Below are positions 3,866 to 63,104 of a DNA stretch of 64,000 nucleotides, piece after piece. The stretch lies in assembly GCA_965226795.1 (NCBI GenBank), contig CBDDDZ010000003.1:64001-128000 (forward strand), written 5' to 3'. Position 1 is the stretch's first letter; each line of letters opens with the position of its first letter. Source of the DNA: Candidatus Latescibacterota bacterium (GTDB lineage Bacteria; Latescibacterota; UBA2968; GCA-2709665). A model generated the notes under the pieces. The model made no database searches. It was given only the letters and a program-made list of their open reading frames with translations, and was not told the origin of the DNA. Position numbers and translations under genes: made by a program.

Positions 3866-4101
3866 TCCCTTGCCCTTTTTCTTGCATCGCCCAAGAAAAA
3901 GGGGGAAAAAGAAGGGCGCCTGCCTGCCGAGCACGGCTCGGCGCAGGCAGGCCGCTCGGCGCGGGGCCGGTTTTTCCGTGAATAACCTCAGAGACAAAAT
4001 TGGAGTTTGGGTGCCCTATGAGTCCCTCAGCTTGACCGATACAACGGTGCTGGACGGATTAACACGGAAAAACCCCCACACCACCACAGGACGGGCGAGG
4101 G
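3866..4101 (-). repeat. Dispersed structured intergenic element, copy 1 (candidate ncRNA or non-autonomous mobile element)
   Basis: Collinear homology with 34315-34613 (same orientation) and 60563-60825 (inverted); compensatory changes in several stems. Confidence 0.85.
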
Positions 4102-4173: not shown

Positions 4174-4213
4174 CTCCCCCTTTCCTTTAGGAGAGGGGGC
4201 CGGGGGGAGAGGT
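4174..4213. repeat. REP-like imperfect palindrome
   Basis: ctccccctttcctttaggagagggggccggggggagagg folds as a hairpin; single copy in this window. Confidence 0.45.
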
Positions 4214-30569: not shown

Positions 30570-30752
30570 TGTTCTGTCCCGGAAATAGATTGCCGTAATT
30601 CGGCCGCCGAGTCGCCCGGCTGGCAAGGCGCCTGAGCGAGTCGACCTGGGCAAGGTCGGCGAGCGAAGGCACTTCGACAAGCTCAGCGCAAGCAACGTAG
30701 CGAGGCGGGATGAATCGGCGGATGAATGGTGACATATTTCTGGGACGGGACA
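30570..30752. mobile_element. MITE-like element with 18-bp imperfect terminal inverted repeats, long copy
   Basis: tgttctgtcccggaaata ... tatttctgggacgggaca; both ends are shared with 36294-36358. Confidence 0.7.
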
Positions 30753-34210: not shown

Positions 34211-34314
34211 ATGTCGGTGAGAAGGTAGACATAAGACGTCAGAGGACCACACCCGACCCCAACGGCCCTTCGCGCTTTGCCTCGTCTCACGTCTCCCGTC
34301 TTCCCTCTAACGGC

Positions 34315-34613
34315 TTTTTTGGAACTGCGTTCCGGGCAGACACATGCTCCTGCTTTTCCTTCAACCTTCATTTTTCCTTTGTCCTTTTTCTTGCTTCGCC
34401 CAAGAAAAAGGACGAAAAAGAAGGGCGCCTGCCTGCCGAGCACGGCTCGGCGCAGGCAGGCCGCTCAGACGCCGCGGGGCTGCTTTTCCGCGAACTACCC
34501 TTACGATGGAAATCCGGGGTTGTGCCCTGCAACGTTCTTAGAACTCCCCGAGTGACGGTGGTGAACGGAATAGCGCGGAAAAGCCCCCTCTTCACCGCCG
34601 GGCGGGCGTGAGG
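34315..34613 (-). repeat. Dispersed structured intergenic element, copy 2
   Basis: Homologous to 3866-4101; 34414-34466 is identical to 3905-3957. Also contains the ggaactgcgttcc hairpin shared with copies 3 and 4. Confidence 0.85.
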
Positions 34614-36293: not shown

Positions 36294-36358
36294 TGTTCTG
36301 TCCCTGAAATAGATTGCCTGAATTCGGAAGAATGGTGACATATTTTCGGGACAGGGCA
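36294..36358. mobile_element. MITE-like element, short 65-bp copy
   Basis: tgttctgtccctgaaatagattgcc...gaatggtgacatattttcgggacagggca; essentially the two ends of the 30570-30752 element joined. Confidence 0.7.
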
Positions 36359-48029: not shown

Positions 48030-49160
48030 ATGCGATTCGTTCGATTCACGATCTTCCTGGGCGCGTGCCTGTGGGGTTTTTCAATTTCTGCGGCCGACCT
48101 GGTCGTGGAGATGCACCAGGAGGAAGAGGAGGCGGAATTGCGGTACCGCGTCGGCGTGATCGACGCGGAAACGCGAACGGTCGATTGGGGTGAGGTGGGG
48201 GCGCACGACGATGGGCAGGCCCCCTCGGTCGCCGTGGACGGAGACCTCGTGGTCGAGGTACACCAGTCCCATTTTGGTACGAATCTGTGGTATAAGGTTG
48301 GCGAGGTCGACGCGAGGACAAAGGCGATCCTGTGGGGCGAGGGGACGAAGTTCGACGGCGGCCGGTTTCCCATGGTCGCGCTGGAGGGCCGGGTGGTGGT
48401 GGAGGTGCATCAGTCCCACCTTGGCACGAATCTGTGGTACCACGTGGGCGTTGTGGACACGCAGGAGAAATCGATTGTCTGGGGCGACGCGCAGAAATAC
48501 GACGAGGGGCGGTTCCCGTCGGTGGCGCTTTCGAACGGGATTGTGGTGGAAACACATCAATCCGAAGAGGGTGAACGTCTACGGTATAACGTAGGCGTGG
48601 TGGATACGGCCGCGATGGAGATCGCGTGGGGAGACGCGCGGGAATACGACCGCGGCCAGACGCCCTCCGTGGATATGGACGATGGCGTGGTCATAGAGAT
48701 ACATGAGTCGATCAACGGAGGGCGTCTGTGGTATCACGTGGGCGCTCTGGATGTGGAGGGCAGGATCGTCGAGTGGGGTGAGGCGAAGGAATCCGACCGG
48801 GGCACGTTGCCCAACGTGGCGCTCGATAACGGGATCGCAACGGAGGTGCATCAGGGACACAACAGTTCCGACCTGTGGTATCGCGTCGGTCCGGTGAATC
48901 CGGAGACGAAGACGGTGTCCTGGGGGACAGGCTGGAACTACGGTGAAGGGATACTGCCCGTTGTGAGCGTCAGCGTCATGGAAAGATCCGCTGATTTCGA
49001 CGGCAACGGAACGGTGGATTTCAGTGATTTTTTGATTTTCGCAAGGGCCTTCGGTTCCGAAGTGGGGGACGTGGATTACGAGAGTCGATTCGACCTGGAT
49101 GGAAACGGCCGCGTCGGCTTTCCCGATTTTGTCCGTTTCGCACGGAAATTTGGCACCTAG
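48030..49160 (+). CDS. Secreted six-repeat beta-propeller protein with a C-terminal dockerin-like double EF-hand
   Basis: Signal-peptide-like N-terminus; six 49-aa repeats; DFDGNGTVDFSDF...DLDGNGRVGFPDF tail. Confidence 0.82.
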   Translation: MRFVRFTIFLGACLWGFSISAADLVVEMHQEEEEAELRYRVGVIDAETRTVDWGEVGAHDDGQAPSVAVDGDLVVEVHQSHFGTNLWYKVGEVDARTKAILWGEGTKFDGGRFPMVALEGRVVVEVHQSHLGTNLWYHVGVVDTQEKSIVWGDAQKYDEGRFPSVALSNGIVVETHQSEEGERLRYNVGVVDTAAMEIAWGDAREYDRGQTPSVDMDDGVVIEIHESINGGRLWYHVGALDVEGRIVEWGEAKESDRGTLPNVALDNGIATEVHQGHNSSDLWYRVGPVNPETKTVSWGTGWNYGEGILPVVSVSVMERSADFDGNGTVDFSDFLIFARAFGSEVGDVDYESRFDLDGNGRVGFPDFVRFARKFGT

Positions 49161-51047
49161 TCCTAAAATAAGCGAGTTTCGTTTGCGGCACATCGATCTG
49201 TGTTTGTGGTGAGGCGTTGGTGTCGATTTATATGGAATTGGCGTTTTGGATGATCTTTGGGGCGGTGTTTGTCGTGGTCGCTATCGTGAATTGAGTATCC
49301 GAAGTGTCGGTCAGGCGCGTGGTGGACACACCGGTGCGTTGAGGGGTGTGGGGATGGCGCGGCGTGTGTGTGTCATCGGTCGTGCTGCATGGGTGTTATC
49401 CAAATCCGGTGCGTTCAATGATACGCCAGGTGCTGAAGAGGCGATCGAGGGTGGGTTGATAGCCGATGAGGCGCAACGTGGTGGTGTGCGCGCGTTGGAT
49501 GACGTGGCAGGGAATCAAGATGATGCTGTGGATGAAGCGCCGGAATTCCATGCGGACGTACTGCTGTCGGTCCAGGTGTCGGTGCATCATCATGGCAAAC
49601 CAGGATTTGAGGTTCCAGGCCAGGGCGGCGATGACCATGTAGGCCCAGTTGCTGACCAGGTCATACAGGGGCACGCGCAAGGCGTTGACGCCGTTTTTGA
49701 GTTGCTCGATGACGTTCTCCTGATCGCAGCGTTGGTTGGCACAGGCGACGATCTCGGCGGGGCTTACGTCCGTGCGTGTCGTGATATAGAAGAAATAACG
49801 GCATTCGTCGAACAGGACAAGGTCGCCCTTCATTTTACTGATGTTCTTGCGCAGGACCACGACGCGATACACACGTTTACAGCGCGTGGGTTGGTAGTTG
49901 AACTCGGCCACGTGTTCGTGGTTCAGCACCAGGTTGGCGTAGGCCCGTTTGCGGACGATGCGCTGTTTCTCGTGGGGCTGATTGCGCTTCCGCTTCTGGT
50001 CGGTCACGGTGTGATAACGGGGTTTGCGTTGCAGGGGCTGCCATTGTGCCTCGTCGAGGGCCTCAGCACGGGAACGCATCGTCGCGTTGGCGTCCATCCC
50101 GAAGATGAAGTCGACGCTTTTGGCCCAGCGATCAAAATGTCGGGTCAAGGAAAAGTCGGTGTCGCCACGTACACAGAGGCGCTTGGCGTGGGGCTGCACC
50201 AGCGCCAAGGCCGCGTCGATCCAGGGTGCCGCACCGGTGTGGCTGGGCACATTCCCCGGTCGGTTGACCAGGAAGAGCACTTCCTTCGTGTTGGCCAGTG
50301 AGATCACCAGCGGATGGTAGCCCCAGATGCCCTGGTAAGAGATGTCCATACCCCTCTTGCGCTTTCCATACGTCGGCACGTTTGTGCCGTCCACGTCGAT
50401 ATAGGTGATGTCACAAAGCAATTTGCGCCCACGCGATGCCCACAAGGAGGATCGCACCGCGTTGATGCACGCCATCAGTTCGACGATGTCCCGTTCCGAG
50501 AAGCGTCGGCAAAAGTCACCCGCCGTGGTCGGATCGGGAATCAACTGAGCACCCAGGGCATTCATGTAGGCCCCGTCATGTCGCAAACGCTCGATATCCT
50601 CCAGGCGCGTGCCGCCGCACAACACGTTGTAAGCGATGTTGAGCACGTGGTCCGACTCATGATAGGGCAGATGCACCTTCAACAGGGACAGCGACGCGTC
50701 GATGCGCTTGGGCAGTCCCAGCTTGGTGACCAGGCGATGCACGGCGCCGATGCCTCCGTAACTCATCGCGTCGGTGTAGGCGCCCACCTCGTAGTGCACT
50801 TTGCCAGGACTGAACATGGGCCGGGGCTGCGCCTGCCAATGCCCCGCTCGACCGTGGCGGGCGGCCACTTTGCGTTTGCGACGAGCACGGTTCCTGCGGC
50901 TGTCATCAACCGATATTCTTTTCACCGGAAAGGTCTCCTGCGTTGGAGTGATGATTTCTAGCGCAATCCATCTATCTCCAACAACGGTAGGCCTTTCCGG
51001 TCTCTTGGACCAGAAAAATCTCACCATCACGCTTGTTTAAGGACTAG
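49157..51047 (-). mobile_element. IS1380-family insertion sequence, copy A
   Basis: Ends CTAGTCCTAAAATAAGCG ... CGCTTGTTTAAGGACTAG; near-identical inverted copy at 54249-56140. Confidence 0.92.
49396..50925 (-). CDS. IS1380-family DDE transposase
   Basis: IDVDGT, GYHPL, RPGN, RGDTDF and RCDQENVIEQLK; probable GTG start after the RBS CAGGAG. Confidence 0.92.
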   Translation of the reverse strand: MKRISVDDSRRNRARRKRKVAARHGRAGHWQAQPRPMFSPGKVHYEVGAYTDAMSYGGIGAVHRLVTKLGLPKRIDASLSLLKVHLPYHESDHVLNIAYNVLCGGTRLEDIERLRHDGAYMNALGAQLIPDPTTAGDFCRRFSERDIVELMACINAVRSSLWASRGRKLLCDITYIDVDGTNVPTYGKRKRGMDISYQGIWGYHPLVISLANTKEVLFLVNRPGNVPSHTGAAPWIDAALALVQPHAKRLCVRGDTDFSLTRHFDRWAKSVDFIFGMDANATMRSRAEALDEAQWQPLQRKPRYHTVTDQKRKRNQPHEKQRIVRKRAYANLVLNHEHVAEFNYQPTRCKRVYRVVVLRKNISKMKGDLVLFDECRYFFYITTRTDVSPAEIVACANQRCDQENVIEQLKNGVNALRVPLYDLVSNWAYMVIAALAWNLKSWFAMMMHRHLDRQQYVRMEFRRFIHSIILIPCHVIQRAHTTTLRLIGYQPTLDRLFSTWRIIERTGFG

Positions 51048-54000
51048 AGGGACATAGCGGGCGCGTCACGTCCGTGGCATTTTCACCCGATGGAAAGACA
51101 CTCGCATCGGGTTCCGATGATGAAACGGTCAAGGTCTGGAATGTAGCGACACAGACAAATATCGCTACCTTTGAGGGACACCGTTCCTGGGTGAGTTCTG
51201 TTGCGTTTTCGCCCGACGGCACTACCATCGCTTCTGCGTCTAGGGATAATGTTTCAAGTTCGTGGGATAACGCCGTAAGACTCTGGGACGTGGCTACCGG
51301 AAAAAATGTAGCCACATATAGACATGTAGATAATATCTCTACGACATATAACTCGCCATGGATTGTTTATCAGCCTTCTGGCCAAGCGCAATTCGTCTAT
51401 TCTGTAGCGTTTTCGCCTGACGGCACTACCCTTGCCTCCGGGGCAGGGCCTTGGGTCGGGAATGGAACAGCCGTTTTGTGGGATGTTTCAGAATGGACCA
51501 GCCCGCGGCCTCACACGATTCAAACAATCTCGGGCAATGGCCAGCAATCATCGCCCGGTTCAGCATTGGCAAATCCGTTCATCGTTGAAGTGAGAGATCA
51601 GAATGGCAATCCCCTACAGGGTGTACGGGTCACGTTTACTGTCACTGCCGGGGATGGGAAACTAAGTGGCAGGTTTGGTGTTGAAAACGCTGTTACCGAT
51701 GCCAGCGGTAGGGCTCAACGGACCTTAACACTTGGCCCAAATCCTGGAGCAAATGCTGTTAAGGCATCTGTTGTGGGGATTGTCGAAGATTATGAGACTA
51801 CGTTTAATGCCACGGGTATTGGAACCCCCACCACGCCTACAATAGATGGTGGTGATTATAGCACGTGGCACTTGCCAAACGGCACCATCGCTCGACTGGG
51901 AAAGGGAAGCATTGGTGGTACCGTTGCGTTTTCTCCAGATGGACGAACGCTCGCTGTCTCCGGAGGCATTGGAGTCTGGCTTTATGAAGTTGCGACACAG
52001 AATGAACTCTCGCTGTTCACGGGGCATCAAGGAACTGTGAGATCCGTAGCTTTCTCTCCTGACGGTACCATGTTGGTTTCCGGCTCAAGTTCATCGTACA
52101 GTGGTACACTGAAGTTGTGGAACGTCTCGACGGGACGCGATATTGCAACCTTTGGAGGTAACCGCACTTGGCGGCAAGCAATCGGGTCAGTGGCGTTTTC
52201 ACCAGATGGAAACTCAATTGCTGCCGGTTCTTACGGCGAGGTTAACCTTTGGGACGTTGCCTCGAAAACAAAAATCGCTACCCTTGCGGGGCATACACGA
52301 TGGGTTCATTCCGTAGCCTACTCCCCAGACGGCAAGATGCTCGCCGCAGGGCTCAATGATGACAAAGTCGAGCTTTGGGATATTTCCGCAAGGACGAAGA
52401 CGACATTGACACATGAAGGTTTGGTAGGGTCCGTCGCATTTTCTCCCGATGGCAGGACCCTTGCTTCCGCTGGTACTGGTATCGTTAAATTGTGGGATGT
52501 AGCAACACGGACCGTTGTCAACACACTTAAAAATACATTTGGCCCCGTGGCATATTCTCCAGATGGCACTATGCTTTTTGCAGGGGATAAGCTGTGGGAT
52601 GCTAATGCAGCCACAAGTCTAGCTACGTTTGGCGGACGAGCGAGTTTCGTCGCATTTTCACCCGACGGGAGAACACTTGCTACAGGAACGAATGTGTATG
52701 TTAGCTTGTGGGATATTCAGACACATAATAACGTCACAATAAAGCATAGTACCGGAGTTAGATCTATCGCATTCTCCCCTGACGGAACAACCCTTGCATC
52801 AGATGGATCGGGATCCGTCCAGTTGTGGGATGTAGCGAAGCAAACAGAAATCGCAACTCTTGATGCTCGTGGACCAGTTGCGTTTTTTCCGAACGGTACC
52901 ACGCTCGTGACAGGGAACAAACTGTGGAATGTCCCAACCCGGACGAATTTCGCGACACTTTCTGGTTTATTTCATTCCGTTGCGATTTCGCCTGATGGAA
53001 CGATCCTTGCATCAGGAGGTGTGGGAAGCACTGTCAAGCTCTGGGACGTTGCGACGAGACAAGAGATCGGCACGCTCGAAGGACATACAGGCGACTTCAA
53101 CAGCGGTGCCGTTCAGGCCGTGGCGTTCTCGCCAGACGGAATCACACTTGCTTCAGGGTCGAGGGACAATACGATCAGGCTGTGGAATGTGTCGACAAGA
53201 CGAAATATCGCGACACTTCAAGGGCATAGTAAGTTCGTTGAATCGGTGGCATTTTCGCCAGACGGCGAAACGCTCGCGTCAGGGTCTCGGGATAGAACTG
53301 TCAAGCTGTGGAATGTGACGTCAGAACAAGGTATCGCCACGCTGAGGCATCGAACCGAGGTTCTAACCGTTGCGTTTGGGCCTGATGGTAATTCACTTGT
53401 TTCAGGATCAGCGGATGGTAGCGTTCTACTATGGGACCCTGTATCAAAAGAGAATACCACTTCTCTTAGCGGACATACTGGGTGGGTAAGGTCAGTTGCG
53501 TATTCATCTAATGGTACAACATTAGCCTCTGGAGCAACGGATGGCACGGTTCTCCTTTGGGATATATCCTCGCTGGGGTCAGGCACGTCACCAGAGGCCT
53601 CCTTTTCACTATCCCTGGACGGAAATCTCGCATCCGGTAATCAGGGCGTCACAACGCTCGACGTTAGTTCCGGGTCGGTTGTCCCGATACAGCTCTTTGG
53701 TAACGATATCCGGGGTGTAAACGGTGTTTCCGCCCGGTTTGAATTCGATGTGGCTCAGGTCGATTATGACGGGTTCGATCCGGGAAGCCTGTTGCCGAAT
53801 GCGCAGGTGCTCGCGGTGCCTGCGACCAATCCAACCGCCATCGATGTCAGCGTCGTGTCTTTTGGCGGGCAGGCTGCGGTCGATAGCGGAATCGTGGGCA
53901 CCATACGTTTCCGCACGACGGACGGGTTTTTGGGTTCGACGATTCGGATGGTGACCGCTGAGATCGGACGCGGAGACGAGCGCGAGAGCATAACGCCATC

Positions 54001-54208
54001 TGATATCGCCGTCACCCTGAGGCTGGCTGAACCGTCGCCGGACTTCAACGGAGACGGCAAGGTCGATTTTGGCGACTTTGTGGCATTTGGAATGCACTTC
54101 GGCGCAAGCCTGGGCGATTCGAGGTACGACCCGAAGTACGACCTTGATCAAGACGGCATGATCGGATTCGGGGATTTCCTGATATTTGGCCAGGAGTTTG
54201 GCACGTAA
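51044..54208 (+). pseudogene. 5'-truncated WD40-repeat protein with Big_1/Ig-like, cohesin-like and dockerin-like domains
   Basis: Frame starts mid-repeat at the IS end (CTA GAG GGA CAT = LEGH), with an in-frame TAA at 51038 and no signal peptide. Many VAFSPDG/LWDV repeats; the rest of the ORF is intact. Confidence 0.8.
53597..54208 (+). repeat. Shared 612-bp C-terminal coding module (cohesin-like plus dockerin-like), copy 1
   Basis: Same length as and collinear with 59525-60136; many long identical stretches. Confidence 0.9.
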
Positions 54209-54248: not shown

Positions 54249-56140
54249 CTAGTCCTTAAATAAGCGTGACCGGTGAGATTTTTCTGGTCCAAGAGACCGG
54301 AAAGGCCTACCGTTGTTGGAGATAGATGGATTGCGCTAGAAATCATCACTCCAACGCAGGAGACCTTTCCGGTGAAAAGAATATCGGTTGATGACAGCCG
54401 CAGGAACCGTGCTCGTCGCAAACGCAAAGTGGCCGCCCGCCACGGTCGAGCGGGGCATTGGCAGGCGCAGCCCCGGCCCATGTTCAGTCCTGGCAAAGTG
54501 CACTACGAGGTGGGCGCCTACACCGACGCGATGAGTTACGGAGGCATCGGCGCCGTGCATCGCCTGGTCACCAAGCTGGGACTGCCCAAGCGCATCGACG
54601 CGTCGCTGTCCCTGTTGAAGGTGCATCTGCCCTATCATGAGTCGGACCACGTGCTCAACATCGCTTACAACGTGTTGTGCGGCGGCACGCGCCTGGAGGA
54701 TATCGAGCGTTTGCGACATGACGGGGCCTACATGAATGCCCTGGGTGCTCAGTTGATTCCCGATCCGACCACGGCGGGTGACTTTTGCCGACGCTTCTCG
54801 GAACGGGACATCGTCGAACTGATGGCGTGCATCAACGCGGTGCGATCCTCCTTGTGGGCATCGCGTGGCCGCAAATTGCTTTGTGACATCACCTATATCG
54901 ACGTGGACGGCACAAACGTGCCGACGTATGGAAAGCGCAAGAGGGGTATGGACATCTCTTACCAGGGCATCTGGGGCTACCATCCGCTGGTGATCTCACT
55001 GGCCAACACGAAGGAAGTGCTCTTCCTGGTCAACCGACCGGGGAATGTGCCCAGCCACACCGGTGCGGCACCCTGGATCGACGCGGCCTTGGCGCTGGTG
55101 CAGCCCCACGCCAAGCGCCTCTGTGTACGTGGCGACACCGACTTTTCCTTGACCCGACATTTTGATCGCTGGGCCAAAAGCGTCGACTTCATCTTCGGGA
55201 TGGACGCCAACGCGACGATGCGTTCCCGTGCTGAGGCCCTCGACGAGGCACAATGGCAGCCCCTGCAACGCAAACCCCGTTATCACACCGTGACCGACCA
55301 GAAGCGGAAGCGCAATCAGCCCCACGAGAAACAGCGCATCGTCCGCAAACGGGCCTACGCCAACCTGGTGCTGAACCACGAACACGTGGCCGAGTTCAAC
55401 TACCAACCCACGCGCTGTAAACGTGTGTATCGCGTCGTGGTCCTGCGCAAGAACATCAGTAAAATGAAGGGCGACCTTGTCCTGTTCGACGAATGCCGTT
55501 ATTTCTTCTATATCACGACACGCACGGACGTAAGCCCCGCCGAGATCGTCGCCTGTGCCAACCAACGCTGCGATCAGGAGAACGTCATCGAGCAACTCAA
55601 AAACGGCGTCAACGCCTTGCGCGTGCCCCTGTATGACCTGGTCAGCAACTGGGCCTACATGGTCATCGCCGCCCTGGCCTGGAACCTCAAATCCTGGTTT
55701 GCCATGATGATGCACCGACACCTGGACCGACAGCAGTACGTCCGCATGGAATTCCGGCGCTTCATCCACAGCATCATCTTGATTCCCTGCCACGTCATCC
55801 AACGCGCGCACACCACCACGTTGCGCCTCATCGGCTATCAACCCACCCTCGATCGCCTCTTCAGCACCTGGCGTATCATTGAACGCACCGGATTTGGATA
55901 ACACCCATGCAGCACGACCGATGACACACACACGCCGCGCCATCCCCACACCCCTCAACGCACCGGTGTGTCCACCACGCGCCTGACCGACACTTCGGAT
56001 ACTCAATTCACGATAGCGACCACGACAAACACCGCCCCAAAGATCATCCAAAACGCCAATTCCATATAAATCGACACCAACGCCTCACCACAAACACAGA
56101 TCGATGTGCCGCAAACGAAACTCGCTTATTTTAGGACTAG
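54249..56140 (+). mobile_element. IS1380-family insertion sequence, copy B
   Basis: Ends CTAGTCCTTAAATAAGCG ... CGCTTATTTTAGGACTAG. Confidence 0.92.
54372..55901 (+). CDS. IS1380-family DDE transposase
   Basis: Same protein sequence as copy A in the ORF track; one synonymous Gly change (GGG/GGC) noticed. Confidence 0.92.
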   Translation: MKRISVDDSRRNRARRKRKVAARHGRAGHWQAQPRPMFSPGKVHYEVGAYTDAMSYGGIGAVHRLVTKLGLPKRIDASLSLLKVHLPYHESDHVLNIAYNVLCGGTRLEDIERLRHDGAYMNALGAQLIPDPTTAGDFCRRFSERDIVELMACINAVRSSLWASRGRKLLCDITYIDVDGTNVPTYGKRKRGMDISYQGIWGYHPLVISLANTKEVLFLVNRPGNVPSHTGAAPWIDAALALVQPHAKRLCVRGDTDFSLTRHFDRWAKSVDFIFGMDANATMRSRAEALDEAQWQPLQRKPRYHTVTDQKRKRNQPHEKQRIVRKRAYANLVLNHEHVAEFNYQPTRCKRVYRVVVLRKNISKMKGDLVLFDECRYFFYITTRTDVSPAEIVACANQRCDQENVIEQLKNGVNALRVPLYDLVSNWAYMVIAALAWNLKSWFAMMMHRHLDRQQYVRMEFRRFIHSIILIPCHVIQRAHTTTLRLIGYQPTLDRLFSTWRIIERTGFG

Positions 56141-58003: not shown

Positions 58004-60136
58004 ATGCGTTCCTCGACTTGGATAACGGGAATATTGTGTGGTCTGTCGTCAGTCAGCCATGCTTCGCCCACGCAAATCGCCACCTTTGTGCACAGTAATG
58101 AGGGACGGACTCAAGCGGTTCGCGGTGTCGCGTTTTCTCGGGACGGCACGACCGTCGCTTCAGCCGGAAATGATAGTACAGTCAAGCTCTGGAACGTGGC
58201 GACACGAACAATTATTCGCACCTTGGAACACGAAAGTCGGGTCGAGGCTGTCGCGTTTTCACCCAATGGAAACCTCCTTGCTTCACACTCTTACGATGTG
58301 AATTTATGGGATTTTGCTACTGGGCGGAAAATTGCTACACTTTTCAAAACCTATGGTGGAGGGCCTGTTGCGTTTTCGCCGGACGGCACGATTCTCGTAG
58401 CAGGGTCACCGGACAACAGGGTAAGGCTGTGGGAGGTATCAACACACCGAGAAATCGCCACGTTCGTTCATGGCGAGATCGGTCCTTCTCTTCACACTGT
58501 GGCATTTTCGCCTACCACACAGGTTCTTGCCTCTGGATCCCAAGATGGAACAATCAAACTCTGGGATGTTTCAACAAAGGGTTATATCGCCACCCTTGAA
58601 GCGCATTCTGGTTCGGTTTTTTCCGTGGCTTTTTCGCCAGACGGTAATACACTGGCTTCCGCCGGCATAAAGCGCGATTCCACAGGCGATTGGGATAGCA
58701 CAGTTAAGTTGTGGGATGTTGAAAAAAGAGAAACAATCGCCACACTCGACGCACATTCGGGTTGGATCCGCACATTGGCGTTTTCGCCCCACGGCACTGT
58801 ACTTGCATCAGGATCCTACGACAACACCGTTAGGCTGTGGGATGTTGAGACAAGGCATAATTTTGCCACTCTTGGTACGGAAAATACCACGTCATTGGGA
58901 GGCCACTTGGGACGAGTCCATGCAGTGGCCTTTTCGCCTAGCGGTGACACTCTTGCTTCGGGTGTCACCGTTGGAGGTGGTCCCTATTCTTCAGAATCCG
59001 GCCCTCCTCCACAGCGAGGAGAAATCCATCTTTGGGACATTTCGATCGAGACGCCCACAATTCCACCGTCTTCCGGTTCTAACTCCGACGCTGTATTGTC
59101 ACTCGACCTGATTCCGAATGGCGGCGCGGGCAATCAGGTGAATGACGGCGTTACGTCAGGAACTGTTTCCGGTAAGGACACGAAGATCGCCGTTGAAGTT
59201 TTCGCGTCTGGTGTGAAGACTTCGCTGGCCGGCCTGCTGGTCAAATTCGACTTCGATTCTTCCGTTCTGGCCTTTGTCAAAGCTGAAAGTGGCGCGTTTG
59301 GCTTTAACATTCCTCAAGCCACCGGCACATACTTTGCGGCCACCAACAATGTCGTTTTGCCGGCTTCAGGGTTCCTTACGCGGGGAGAGTTCAAATCCCT
59401 GGTTGATGTAACCGATCGACCGTTTTCCATAGGCATTGACGTCGTGACGCTCGCCGAAAGCCAGACTGTATCAAACGACATCAGAACCACGAAAGTCATT
59501 TCGTTCAATTCTACTCCACCCCCCGCCACCTTCTCGGTCTCCCTGGATGCCAATAATGCCGCTGGCGATCAGGGCGTCACATTGCTCGATGTTGGCTCCG
59601 GATCGGTTGTCCCGATACAGCTCTTTGGCAACGAAATCCTGGGTGTAAACGGCGTTTCCGCCCGGTTTGAATTCGATGCGGCTCAGGTCGGTTATGACGG
59701 GTTCGATCCGGGGAACCTGTTGCCGAATGTGCAGCTACTCGCGGTGCCTGCCACCAATCCAACCGCCATCGACATCAGTGTCGTGTCTTTTGGCGGGCAG
59801 GCTGCGGTCGATAGTGGAATGGTGGGAACCATACGTTTCCGCACGACTGACGCATTTTCGGGTACGACACTCCGGATGGTGAGCGCTGAGATCGGCAGGG
59901 GCGACCAACGTGAGAAACTTACGCTATCCGATACCGGCGTCATGCTAAGGCTGGCTCAGCTGACGCCGGACTTCAATGGAGACGGCAAGGTCGATTTTGG
60001 CGACTTTGTCGCATTCGGAATGCACTTCGGCGCAAGCCGGGGCGACGCGAGGTACGAAGCGAAGTACGATTTGGATGAAGATGGCGCGATCGGATTCGGC
60101 GATTTCCTGATTTTCGGCCGCGAGTTCGGTACATAA
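58004..60136 (+). CDS. Secreted WD40 beta-propeller protein with two cohesin-like domains and a dockerin-like tail
   Basis: Signal-peptide-like MRSSTWITGILCGLSSVSHA, seven WD40 repeats, Pro/Ser linker, DFNGDGKVDFGDF tail; RBS GGGAG. Confidence 0.88.
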   Translation: MRSSTWITGILCGLSSVSHASPTQIATFVHSNEGRTQAVRGVAFSRDGTTVASAGNDSTVKLWNVATRTIIRTLEHESRVEAVAFSPNGNLLASHSYDVNLWDFATGRKIATLFKTYGGGPVAFSPDGTILVAGSPDNRVRLWEVSTHREIATFVHGEIGPSLHTVAFSPTTQVLASGSQDGTIKLWDVSTKGYIATLEAHSGSVFSVAFSPDGNTLASAGIKRDSTGDWDSTVKLWDVEKRETIATLDAHSGWIRTLAFSPHGTVLASGSYDNTVRLWDVETRHNFATLGTENTTSLGGHLGRVHAVAFSPSGDTLASGVTVGGGPYSSESGPPPQRGEIHLWDISIETPTIPPSSGSNSDAVLSLDLIPNGGAGNQVNDGVTSGTVSGKDTKIAVEVFASGVKTSLAGLLVKFDFDSSVLAFVKAESGAFGFNIPQATGTYFAATNNVVLPASGFLTRGEFKSLVDVTDRPFSIGIDVVTLAESQTVSNDIRTTKVISFNSTPPPATFSVSLDANNAAGDQGVTLLDVGSGSVVPIQLFGNEILGVNGVSARFEFDAAQVGYDGFDPGNLLPNVQLLAVPATNPTAIDISVVSFGGQAAVDSGMVGTIRFRTTDAFSGTTLRMVSAEIGRGDQREKLTLSDTGVMLRLAQLTPDFNGDGKVDFGDFVAFGMHFGASRGDARYEAKYDLDEDGAIGFGDFLIFGREFGT
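59525..60136 (+). repeat. Shared 612-bp C-terminal coding module, copy 2
   Basis: Collinear with 53597-54208. Confidence 0.9.
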
Positions 60137-60562
60137 CGTCGAATTCCTGCGGAAACTGGCTGTCAACATTTCAAAAGCAGGTATGTGGAGGCAGCCGCCT
60201 TGATTCGTGGAAGACACTGAGGTCTGCGAGCGGAACCACACGCTCTTCTCTGGATGTTGTGAGAAGCAAGAACAGCAGCGGCATCCCATTTTTGGAAACG
60301 AGGGCGATCCAAGGATCGCCCTCGTTCACTTTTAGGGTTACCAGAACGCGGTCTCTCACACGGCAACTTACAACCGCGCAGTGGTGGAGTGGGGGCTGTT
60401 GTTCGCGGCATGAGACGCGCCGCTCACCATCAAGTTCGAATGCCAACATCAGGCGTCCCCTGTTGTCCCAATAAACCACCGGAACAACCGGTCACCGCTA
60501 CGCGGGTGGAACTGGATTCTCCGCGCCTTAACGTACAGCAACATCAAATTACTGGGATTCTT

Positions 60563-60825
60563 CCCTCGCGCGACCGGTGGCGGAGATGGGGGTTTTTCCG
60601 CGTTAATCCGTCCAGCACCACAGTATCGGCTTATCTGACGAACCCGTAGGGCACCCAACCTCCGTTACTGCCCCTGAGGCGATTCGTGGAAAAACCGGCC
60701 CCGCGCCGAGCGGCGCGGTTCTTTTTGGTCCTTTTTCTTACGCGAATAAGAAAAAGGACGAAGAAGAAAAGAGGTTGAAGTAAAGGGTAAGGCCTGTGCC
60801 CGCCCGGAACGCAGTTCCAAAAAAA
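60563..60825 (+). repeat. Dispersed structured intergenic element, copy 3 (lacks the 33-bp insert)
   Basis: Reverse complement aligns with copies 1 and 2, e.g. ggtgctggacggattaac and tgggtgcccta shared with copy 1. Confidence 0.85.
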
Positions 60826-60964
60826 CAGGAAGAGGAAAGACGAGAGACGCTAGAAGGCCCCCCAACCTCCGCCGGACATCGATACGGCCTGACGAGATCA
60901 ATTCGCGAACGTCTGGTTCTTGCAGGGGCGCTTCGCGCTGCCGCCTTGATTCCTGACAACAGAA

Positions 60965-62935
60965 TCAAACCGCTTCCGTTACCGCCCCGCGCATCTTCAG
61001 GATATACTTCGCCCGATCCAGCGGCGATATCCCTTTGTAGGGCCGCACGACTCCCTCGCCCGGCGGGCAGGGCTCATATCCGCCGTACTTGAAGGAGAAC
61101 TTCGCCGTTCCGCCTGTCAACGAGTTCAGCCGGATCGGATAGTCCATCGAAGTCGCCAGGGGTAATCGTCCGGTAACCGATAACGCACCTCCGTCAGCCT
61201 CCACCGGATCGAAGGTACCGCGCGCATTTATGATATCCGACGTGATCTTTCCAATGCAGGTCTCGGGTACCGAGATTTTAAACGCCAGAATCGGTTCGAG
61301 CAGAATCGACCCGGTCTCGGTCAGCCCTTTCAACACGGCGATATTCGTTGCCAGTCTGAAATTGCCCGCTCGGCTGTGCAACACGTGATCGCTGCCCTCC
61401 ACCAGGGTGATCTTCAGATCCGTGACTTCCCATCCCTTGATTCCCTGCTTGAGCGCGTCCTCGATCGATCTTTCGATCTCCTTCTGATATCGCGCCTTGA
61501 TGTCGTTGACGCCGACCTGTGACGAATAAACAACACCGCTTCCCGGCTCACCCGGTTCCATCCGATACTTCACGATGGCCCAACACGGCTTCGGCATCGT
61601 GTAGCGCTCAATGCCGTGTCCGACCGAAGCAGGTGTTTCCTTGTAAATGACCAACGGGTCATTGAACCGCGCTTTGATGCCAAAGCGCGCATCGAGCATC
61701 TCCTTCAGAATCTCCGCCTGAATTGCGCCCATGATCTTCACATGCAGTTCGCGTTCATCCTCGAACCACGTGAAGTTGAGGTGTGGGTCTTCGCTCGACA
61801 ACTGCTGCAGCGCCACGGCCAGTCGAGAGCGATCCGCCTCGTCTTCCGGGACAGCCTGTACCGACAACAGGGGCTCTCCGAGCTCGTAGGACCCGGGGAT
61901 GGGGCCCGGGTCGCCCAGGATGTCGCCGATCTTCGCCTCCGGCATCCCGCAGAAGAAACCGATGTCGCCGGCGGAGAGGACGCCTGTGTCCTCATATCGA
62001 TTGAGAAAGGATTTCTTGATCTGCGTAATCTTCTCGTCGCGATCAGCCGTGACATTCCGGATGATATCTCTGTTCCGGAGCCGTCCCGCATAGAGACGAA
62101 CGCCGGCGATCCGCCCAAGTTTCGGATCGTGGTCGAGCTTGAAAACCACACCGGAGGCCGGACGTGAGTCGTCGGCATTCGCATCGGGGAAATAGGCCAC
62201 GATCTTCCCCAGCAGTTCCTCCGTTCCGATCATGTTCTTCGCCACGCCACAGAGTATGGGAAACAGCTCTCTCTTTGCCGTACAAGCCGCGATCACCTTC
62301 TCGATCTCTGCTCGTGAAATCGGCTCCTCGTTCAGGAATCGCTCCAGGTGCACGTCGTCCTTCGCGGCTACGCTCTCTGTCAGGGAGGCCAGACCGTCCG
62401 GGTCAAGATCGACGATTCCCGCGTCCGATTCGCCTTCCCTCTCCGGCTGATTGACCGGAATCGCGTCGGGTGAAAATCGGCGCTTCAGATCATCGACGAC
62501 CCTGGCCGTATCCGCGCCCATCCGATCCAGCTTGTTCACGAACAGGATGACGGGTATGCTCAGCGCTTCCAGCGCGGCCCAGATCGATTCCGTCTGAGCC
62601 TGGATGCCTTCGACCGCGGAAAGAACGAGCACGGCGCAGTCGAGCACACGCAGAGATCGCTCGACCTCGGCGGAAAAATCGACGTGCCCCGGCGTGTCGA
62701 TCAGGTTGATCCTCACGCCCTCCCACTCGAATGACAGCGCCGATGCTCGAACCGAGATCCCTCGCCGCCTCTCCACATCGAGCGCATCGGAAAGGCTTGT
62801 CCCTTTGTCGACATTTCCAGGCGAGCGGATGGCACCGCTGAGGAACAGCATATTCTCAGTCACGGTCGTCTTGCCGGCATCGACGTGCGCGAGGATACCA
62901 AGATTGCGAATTCTTGAGGAATCTTCAGGAGGCAC
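60965..62935 (-). CDS. TetM/TetO/TetB(P)-like translational GTPase (ribosomal protection protein family)
   Basis: NLGILAHVDAGKTT, ERRRGIS, DTPGHVDF, NKLDR, QGIKGWEVTDLKITL and ILLEP; start uncertain (62935-62995). Confidence 0.85.
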   Translation of the reverse strand: MPPEDSSRIRNLGILAHVDAGKTTVTENMLFLSGAIRSPGNVDKGTSLSDALDVERRRGISVRASALSFEWEGVRINLIDTPGHVDFSAEVERSLRVLDCAVLVLSAVEGIQAQTESIWAALEALSIPVILFVNKLDRMGADTARVVDDLKRRFSPDAIPVNQPEREGESDAGIVDLDPDGLASLTESVAAKDDVHLERFLNEEPISRAEIEKVIAACTAKRELFPILCGVAKNMIGTEELLGKIVAYFPDANADDSRPASGVVFKLDHDPKLGRIAGVRLYAGRLRNRDIIRNVTADRDEKITQIKKSFLNRYEDTGVLSAGDIGFFCGMPEAKIGDILGDPGPIPGSYELGEPLLSVQAVPEDEADRSRLAVALQQLSSEDPHLNFTWFEDERELHVKIMGAIQAEILKEMLDARFGIKARFNDPLVIYKETPASVGHGIERYTMPKPCWAIVKYRMEPGEPGSGVVYSSQVGVNDIKARYQKEIERSIEDALKQGIKGWEVTDLKITLVEGSDHVLHSRAGNFRLATNIAVLKGLTETGSILLEPILAFKISVPETCIGKITSDIINARGTFDPVEADGGALSVTGRLPLATSMDYPIRLNSLTGGTAKFSFKYGGYEPCPPGEGVVRPYKGISPLDRAKYILKMRGAVTEAV

Positions 62936-63039: not shown

Positions 63040-63104
63040 GGACGAAGAAAGATCAAAATGTGAAGGGAGAGGTGCTGCCTGTGTCCGCCCGGAACGCAGT
63101 TCCA
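63040..63104 (+). repeat. Dispersed structured element, copy 4 (3' fragment)
   Basis: gcctgtgtccgcccggaacgcagttcca (63077-63104) matches 60792-60819 at 27/28, with degenerate similarity upstream. Confidence 0.75.

Follow-up and report, generated by a model that had tools for sequence, protein, structure and literature searches.

In the available text of Li et al. (2026, bioRxiv 10.64898/2026.09.22.753630), the extended TwoAYGGAY elements of Pseudomonadota are described with a basal stem, a pseudoknot at the 3′ side, short repeats at the 5′ side, divergent doublets, and swings in copy number. In the accessible main text of that preprint the word "triplex" is absent and a triple helix is unmentioned. 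TwoAYGGAY was entered as probably RNA in a table within the accessible part of PMC2864571. Dispersed repeats of another type, the intrastrand triplex repeats (PIT/BoxC/TMECO and ITxF classes), were searched for with the criteria, as given in the available portion of Holder et al. (2015, PMC4666352), of three stems of 6–15 nt and loops of 1–6 nt. The solved natural RNA triple helices treated in the accessible part of PMC7102945 have six or fewer consecutive triples.

The locus studied here lies in a 64,000-nt stretch of DNA, which is called the window in what follows, from a host that is a sponge symbiont; the source stretch was present in sponge metatranscriptomes. A sequence-only reading had proposed, in the third copy of a dispersed motif, an H-type pseudoknot holding a pyrimidine-motif helix of 8-9 base triples. 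The five segments of this copy, S1a, L1, S2a, S1b, and S2b, were present at the coordinates proposed (Table 1), and so was the compensatory change in S1, with CGCC(C)/(G)GGCG in copies 1 and 2 against CGCG in copy 3. The L1 core TTCTTTTT (60719-26) matched base for base, in parallel register, the S2b stretch AAGAAAAA (60748-55), which gives eight predicted triples. The ninth triple of the proposal, a C.G-C, is possible only where L1 ends in C; this was the case in 51 of 154 modules, including copies 1 and 2 and excluding copy 3. At the distal S2 pair, copy 1 had a C.C mismatch. The tail motif of the subfamily of copy 3 recurred at 34320-34376 (-) and stood alone at 63061-63104, and accessory module C was found 12 times in the genome. 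When the genome was scanned for pyrimidine-purine hairpins with a mirror third strand and at least 7 triples, 86 sites were detected, against 0, 0, and 0 in three local shuffles.

Table 1. Features of the motif and its surroundings, in positions of the window.
Feature	Position	Strand	Evidence or remark
Copy 3 pseudoknot, H-type, predicted 8-triple pyrimidine-motif helix	60714..60759	+	sequence; three-way covariation in homologues
Copy 3 S1a, CGCG	60714-17	+	
Copy 3 L1	60718-27	+	
Copy 3 S2a	60728-40	+	
Copy 3 S1b	60741-44	+	followed by a 2-nt loop
Copy 3 S2b	60747-59	+	
P2, small conserved hairpin just 5′ of S1a	60701..60713	+	4 bp, GCCGA loop
P1, long basal stem, 5′ arm	60591..60602	+	compensatory pairs
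P1, basal stem, 3′ arm	60685..60696	+	compensatory pairs
Interior	60603..60684	+	fixed length of ~82 nt, variable sequence; TCCGT near-invariant, AGG invariant
Purine-rich tail and tail motif	60760..60819	+	one subfamily
Accessory module C, same-strand, precedes some copies	60375..60560	+	approximate ends
Copy 1 pseudoknot	3873..3918	-	element about 3870-4085; palindromic insert
Copy 2 pseudoknot	34381..34427	-	element about 34290-34600; palindromic insert
MITE examples	30570-30752 and 36294-36358	+	

The motif is the end of a non-coding intergenic element of ~200 nt, with 81 copies in this 5.4-Mb Ca. Latescibacterota genome (the profile of the module gave 85 matches, 81 of them above 40 bits). 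From 5′ to 3′, the element is formed by the basal stem P1, the interior, the P2 hairpin, the pseudoknot, and, last, a purine-rich tail that exists in a few versions. The basal stem is elongated and supported by compensatory pairs. The interior had a mean identity of ~48% despite its near-fixed length, the spacing between its anchors being 36-37 plus 29-30 nt in most copies of this family, called A. Protein coding in the interior was ruled out by stops in all six frames, and no covarying helix was detected inside it by mutual information over 193 sequences. Its invariant AGG sits in a C-GYA-G mini-hairpin (window 60643-60651). A second family, B, with 32 copies in the genome, has the interior in common with A, a different basal stem, and a different knot in which an L1 TTTT lies opposite AAAA. 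Just 3′ of the knot of family B (for example, at C2:261823), two positions five bases apart covary, and all four complementary combinations were seen by eye, which suggests a tiny hairpin with a GCC loop.

Both families meet in doublets: 26 of the 32 neighbouring pairs within 2 kb were divergent A-B pairs with both pseudoknots facing outward. The partners were no more alike than permuted pairs (identity 0.429 versus 0.432; 28 pairs), and no cargo gene above 72 codons was found in the divergent pairs seen among 55 homologue loci with enough flank, except for one match, at L163, that is probably unrelated. One MITE-bounded doublet of the genome contained an ORF call of 215 codons.

Covariation of the stems was analysed in 154 distinct family A modules (70 of the own genome and 84 of sister genomes) collected with a pattern in which most of the core is fixed; from the 81 copies of the genome, five truncated or chimeric ones had been excluded beforehand and 76 kept. 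S1 was complementary in 148 of the 154, in two forms. The top pair of S2 was G-C in 80, T-A in 34, A-T in 28, G.T in one, and mismatched in 11, while the distal pair was C-G in 83 and T-A in 71. Both stems of the proposed H-type pseudoknot thus covary. The P2 hairpin, CCNN-GCCGA-NNGG, was complementary in 136 modules, in four forms. It had been cautioned that S1a of copy 3 can pair instead in a local hairpin; since S1a is free in the conserved P2 fold, that rival hairpin is not the conserved one, and the caveat was mostly resolved, with the 7-bp rival still competitive in copy 3.

This rival hairpin bears on another explanation, in which the preceding GC hairpin and L1, as its U-tract, would make up an intrinsic terminator or attenuator and the pseudoknot would be an alternative fold. 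Copy 3 does score terminator-like at 60701-60718, and its rival hairpin was computed at -14.7 kcal/mol versus -6.1 for P2 plus about -4 for S1, triples not counted. Nevertheless, a stem of at least 7 bp touching the U-tract was present in only 31 of 155 copies, the covariation favours P2, which ends 5 nt before the tract, and the orientation of the copies, which are intergenic by position, was random relative to their neighbours (25/20/20/16) and unrelated to the upstream genes. A terminator is therefore highly improbable as the explanation of the motif.

The triple core was invariant within the clade (153 of 154 modules), so the covariation of the third strand was examined in distant homologues. 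In two distant genomes of the phylum there was a variant, D, in which each of the three strands is shorter by one triple and S1 is lacking; the phylum pattern that caught it has a gap too short for the main family. As S1-less variants exist, S1 as an essential part did not find support. A relaxed pattern yielded 122 metagenome stretches, in 2 of 64 parts scanned (an estimated total of ~6,400), and 8 viral ones, making a homologue set of 134 matches in 130 loci, some chance matches included; the exact patterns of families A and B gave 0 and 0 matches in viral contigs. Among 121 distinct motifs, the C of L1 was followed by four T in 87 of the 98 with four in S2, and in 3 of the 19 with three in S2, so that the C in L1 tracks the C-G register of S2. 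The T-run located 5′ of that C tracked the paired T-A run as well (rho 0.66, n=115). Of 120 homologues, 77 had an S1 of at least 4 bp, against a permuted mean of 21 and maximum of 34. With the register anchored at the S1 junction and zero offset, all triples matched in 48 of these 77 pseudoknots, versus a mean of 24.7 and a maximum of 34 in 2000 permutations; the other 29 were imperfect at zero offset.

Considering that the seed pattern fixed part of L1, the scan was repeated without L1. It gave seven matches, corresponding to six distinct hairpins, five of which had 5-9 matching triples, and the shuffles gave none; at L177 the match lacked a third strand. Partner motifs with other cores, found by a search in which the mirror was required, had matching third strands, and among them were two cores with two C.G-C positions and third strands to match (L166 and L199). 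The homologues are related, and p-values and counts therefore overstate their independence; there were, all the same, several separate core changes, each one matched in the third strand. Independent variation of L1 and S2, proposed beforehand as the observation that would speak against the fold, was thus not what we found: the third strand follows the duplex, and this three-way covariation of L1, S2a, and S2b argues for a pyrimidine-motif triple helix, which by comparison of sequences is well supported. That the triples form in the cell seems very probable to us. The knot with its predicted triple helix occurs in thousands of bacterial loci, with 35-70% GC, and no description of a triplex pseudoknot of this kind was found in the open-access literature.

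It could be argued that no triple helix exists and that slippage in T-runs, or pairing between L1 and the A-rich tail, produced the mirror as a by-product. The core is locally invariant, and the minimum-energy folds of copy 3 do pair L1 with the tail or with the neighbour of S1a, in a model that leaves pseudoknots and triples outside. However, duplexes of L1 with the tail were no better than those with shuffled tails (median -3.0 versus -3.9; 23 versus 35 of 70 at or below -4), and the matching third strands of the two-C cores at L166 and L199 also stand against a by-product, which we consider highly improbable.

The mirror repeat alone carries no information on the strand that folds. Loop 1 of a pseudoknot crosses the major groove only on the strand read as + for copy 3, and in distal S2 we counted 50 G.T against 8 A.C. 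Taking together this G.U bias and the groove geometry, the fold is placed on the strand of the sequence-only reading. The proposal that the folded molecule is RNA did not find support, there being triloops of DNA type on the folding strand and no enrichment in RNA contigs; nor did any of the three functions put forward with it, RNA end protection, roadblocking, and recognition by a mobilising enzyme. The summed contig depth of the module relative to its flank was ~25-120x in four RNA runs and ~50-200x in three runs that are probably DNA (their kind is unrecorded, and contig depth is a poor measure); as depth was raised no more in the former than in the latter, it may be explained by copy number. 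In the homologues, the folding strand had GNRA loops in a ratio of 15:2 and 27 hairpins with GGA loops. C-GNA-G triloops were 45:9 on the folding strand compared with 19:25 further away, and family A in the host genome showed an excess of triloops only downstream (18:6; upstream 10:12). Mini-hairpins of the C-GNA-G type are, according to the accessible part of PMC13037366, far stabler as DNA than as RNA. Between single-stranded DNA and RNA as the polymer of the working strand, the balance is about even.

These observations are also those that bear on a host-beneficial small RNA, whose triplex pseudoknot would shield its 3′ end from exonucleases in an ENE-like manner, with spread being secondary. 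Such an RNA is in agreement with the entry of TwoAYGGAY, which has the same end, as probably RNA in the accessible table of PMC2864571, with the GNRA and GGA-loop hairpins, with the G.U bias, with the purine-rich tail after the knot, and with the lack of replication-strand bias. It is at odds with a depth that copy number would explain (even if contig depth is a poor measure), with the excess of C-GNA-G triloops on the folding strand, with the lack of any sigma-70 promoter in 60100-61000, and with the distribution of CsrA, which was absent from 19 of 19 genomes of three carrier genera and present in two of three lacking the element. We regard the small RNA as unlikely.

In its distribution the element resembles mobile DNA. 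There were 3-80 copies across 15 genomes of the genus; the counts for a second genus were 15 and 47, and this pattern had no match in 5 other genomes of the family. In 18 comparisons of sites with sister species, mosaic inserts of 370-1127 nt stood against empty or differently filled sites; neither sharp ends nor a consistent target duplication was detected by eye in them, and the flanking genes were mostly syntenic across the filled sites. The terminus half was avoided, with 4 of 81 copies in 40% of the genome (C5:0.62-2.8 Mb; dnaA is at C3:450 kb). Between -600 and -150 of the 81 copies, GCNNTCA heptamers appeared 113 times in forward and 21 times in reverse orientation, where ~42 are expected per strand. 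A 33-nt palindrome was inserted at the P2 site, just before S1a, in 45 of the 85 genome matches, and it is absent in copy 3. In element-rich contigs the GC skew changes sign often, which suggests inversions.

Other mobile sequences accompany the copies. A MITE family with inverted ends (TGT...ACA) is represented in the genome by 68 paired copies, 54-1035 nt in length and often set in a CTAG context, and 6 of the 81 family A copies sit inside a MITE, always with the same polarity. In sister genomes, three different insertion-element ends were found right after S1b (L033/L036, L052/L066, and L054; 5 loci), one of them being a complete MITE of ~115 nt, so loop 3 of the pseudoknot looks like an insertion hotspot. 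These mosaics also contain, upstream of the element, a second motif of triplex type, G/C-rich, with a pyrimidine mirror and a purine arm and resembling BoxC/TMECO (window ~4174-4212 (-) and many sister loci, such as L067, L076, and L085). The window also contains two identical inverted IS copies with a DDE transposase (PF13701), at 49157-51025 and 54272-56140, which enclose a WD40-repeat gene (51074-54208) in a composite-transposon-like arrangement; a second WD40 gene adjoins.

A fold in chromosomal DNA, formed while the strands are transiently apart, could produce such a picture if it stalled forks or polymerases and became a hotspot of recombination and insertion, with host repair spreading the copies and no dedicated enzyme. 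The intrastrand triplex repeats of E. coli have been read in this way, and Holder et al., in the available part of their paper, link such repeats to instability (2015, PMC4666352). The single-polarity mosaics of shuffled modules, the insertion-element ends in the pseudoknot loop, the palindrome before S1a, the frequent changes of skew, and the second triplex-type motif would fit with it. In duplex DNA, a mirror of 8 bp is short for H-DNA. Furthermore, the upkeep of the basal stem, of the fixed-length interior, and of S1 would stay unexplained, and the synteny around the filled sites also counts against such a hotspot. For these reasons we consider a chromosomal roadblock quite unlikely.

We looked for an enzyme that could move the element. 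No mobility gene recurred near the copies among 110 of 140 neighbouring ORF pieces. IS110, TnpB, and the four-helix bundle had no match in the genome, nor had GIY-YIG, a zero that is doubtful since a match to UvrC was to be expected. Genes of integrase-like and DUF559 type were distant from the copies. Matches to Y1 transposases and reverse transcriptases (RT) did not track copy number, and a closed sister genome with 43 copies had neither. The Y1 matches are at C2:154-170 kb, with the nearest copy at C2:143,760, and no copy flanks the Y1 genes. The Y1 transposase-like domain is inside open frames of ~1,200 aa (L109 and L110, at C2:164-170 kb), and it appears in sister genomes too. The intact RT looks like a group II intron protein, and at three sites (L293/L020, L284, and L015) a group II intron interrupted the heptamer repeats that precede the elements. 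At L206 (and at L145 by similarity), in 2 of 130 loci, a gene for an integron-type integrase has its end ~180 nt upstream of a triplex-hairpin motif. No template for the heptamers was found by eye. A guide function was rejected, since 854 of 4242 13-mers were found elsewhere in the genome versus 692 in shuffles, the longest match being of 20 nt in one copy, and the doublet partners showed no co-evolution. A bridge RNA or omega/reRNA system was discarded as well, given that there were no target matches beyond background in the own genome and no cognate IS110 or TnpB. Single-strand DNA transposons show leading/lagging bias, and its absence here (38:37) counts against single-strand DNA transposition.

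An element that behaves as mobile DNA has heads that change between lineages (the 82-nt interior, variant D, TwoAYGGAY) and retains the pseudoknot as its outer end, and we therefore read the knot as a terminal handle. In this reading the motif is the outer, conserved terminus of a non-coding intergenic element present in many copies, whose number and place vary among sister species. One of its strands would fold into a pseudoknot in which the first loop, as eight base triples, occupies the major groove of the stem of 13 pairs. This compact, probably nuclease-resistant end could serve as a protected handle for a putative enzyme acting in trans, which would spread the element through a single-stranded intermediate. 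The knot likely marks the end of the repeat for both its protection and its spread; that its role is mobility is the option we slightly favour, and for the whole explanation, with the triplex-pseudoknot end as terminal handle in a single-stranded step of spread, the chances appear evenly divided. A wider formulation, which we judge unlikely, would make of these elements a cross-phylum class moved by an enzyme of no described family, their single-stranded DNA pseudoknot terminus of 8-9 triples being capped in telomere-like fashion in the divergent doublets, with the heads as cargo and the 5′ repeats as insertion footprints. The 46-mer makes the structure, the question of RNA versus DNA, and an enzyme pull-down directly testable.

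The comparison with known systems can now be made. Repeats of the REP/REPIN/BIME type are intergenic, modular, and often arranged in inverted doublets whose partners pair into one hairpin, and their copies flank the cognate RAYT gene. The present element shares with them these three traits and a RAYT-like Y1 gene in the host genome; it differs in that its Y1 genes are not flanked by copies, Y1 presence does not follow copy number, and the doublet partners are no more alike than random pairs. In ENE and MALAT1-type elements, a U.A-U-rich triple helix with a central C.G-C lies near the 3′ end, and a U-rich internal loop captures the A-rich tail. A helix of like composition and position is predicted here in a bacterial element of pseudoknot topology that has no such tail-capturing loop; the ENE type was rejected because the A-rich strand is a Watson-Crick arm of the hairpin and the L1-tail pairing does no better than shuffles.

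With the ITxF and TMECO repeats, as far as they are described in the available part of Holder et al. (PMC4666352), there is in common a dispersed intergenic repeat in which one strand provides a duplex and a mirror third strand, and a patchy copy number among relatives. The 8-nt stems of copy 3 (60719-26, 60732-39, and 60748-55) are within the length range searched there, whereas, of its loops of 5 and 8 nt, the latter is outside the 1-6 nt allowed. The motif is of pyrimidine type and A/T-rich, in contrast to the G/C-rich purine motif of TMECO; moreover, its hairpin loop pairs back as S1 and it is part of a 200-nt structured element. The predicted fold coincides with the telomerase RNA pseudoknot, as presented in the accessible part of PMC7583470, in being of H-type, with a loop 1 rich in U that occupies the major groove of stem 2, and in its U.A-U and C.G-C triples, with 8-9 consecutive triples predicted here versus three in the human one. 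The knot is here outside the closing stem, and neither a template nor an RT partner was found; homology to telomerase RNA is not claimed, the likeness being one of topology. Few natural runs of consecutive base triples would be longer, should the fold form.

As regards TwoAYGGAY, no Rfam family reached its gathering score in the window, where only weak matches of chance level appeared at E up to 10, and RF01731 had no match in it. The search of the genome with RF01731 gave 0 matches, and the same search also gave 0 in 14 controls. In homologue loci, of which 60 of 130 were scanned, there were six RF01731 matches in five loci: four ended 27-54 nt before a triplex pseudoknot on the same strand (L142, L151, L190, and L192), and two lay in a divergent partner bearing its own knot. 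The element shares with the extended TwoAYGGAY elements the elongated basal stem, the 3′ pseudoknot (that of the preprint being compared by its description in the available text), the short degenerate upstream repeats in fixed orientation, here GCNNTCA, and the divergent doublets with large variation in copy number (here 26 of 32 pairs and 3-80 copies). Unlike them, it has no AYGGAY hairpins and no covarying hairpins in its interior, its host belongs to another phylum and lacks CsrA, and its doublet always joins two unlike families, A with B. A CCCGTRGG stretch at the basal junction of TwoAYGGAY resembles the AGG mini-hairpin, a hint of common origin. Membership in RF01731 was rejected, as there are no two hairpins with AYGGAY loops on the basal stem and no match above gathering in the window; the Latescibacterota element works like the extended TwoAYGGAY elements and is not a member of the family. 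The architecture is already in print (Li et al. 2026), and what we infer here is the function. With a host lacking CsrA, the pseudoknot end, and not the Csr-binding loops, is pointed to as the part needed for spread, and the knot would supply the link, missing so far, that joins the orphan TwoAYGGAY family with repeat heads unrelated to it.
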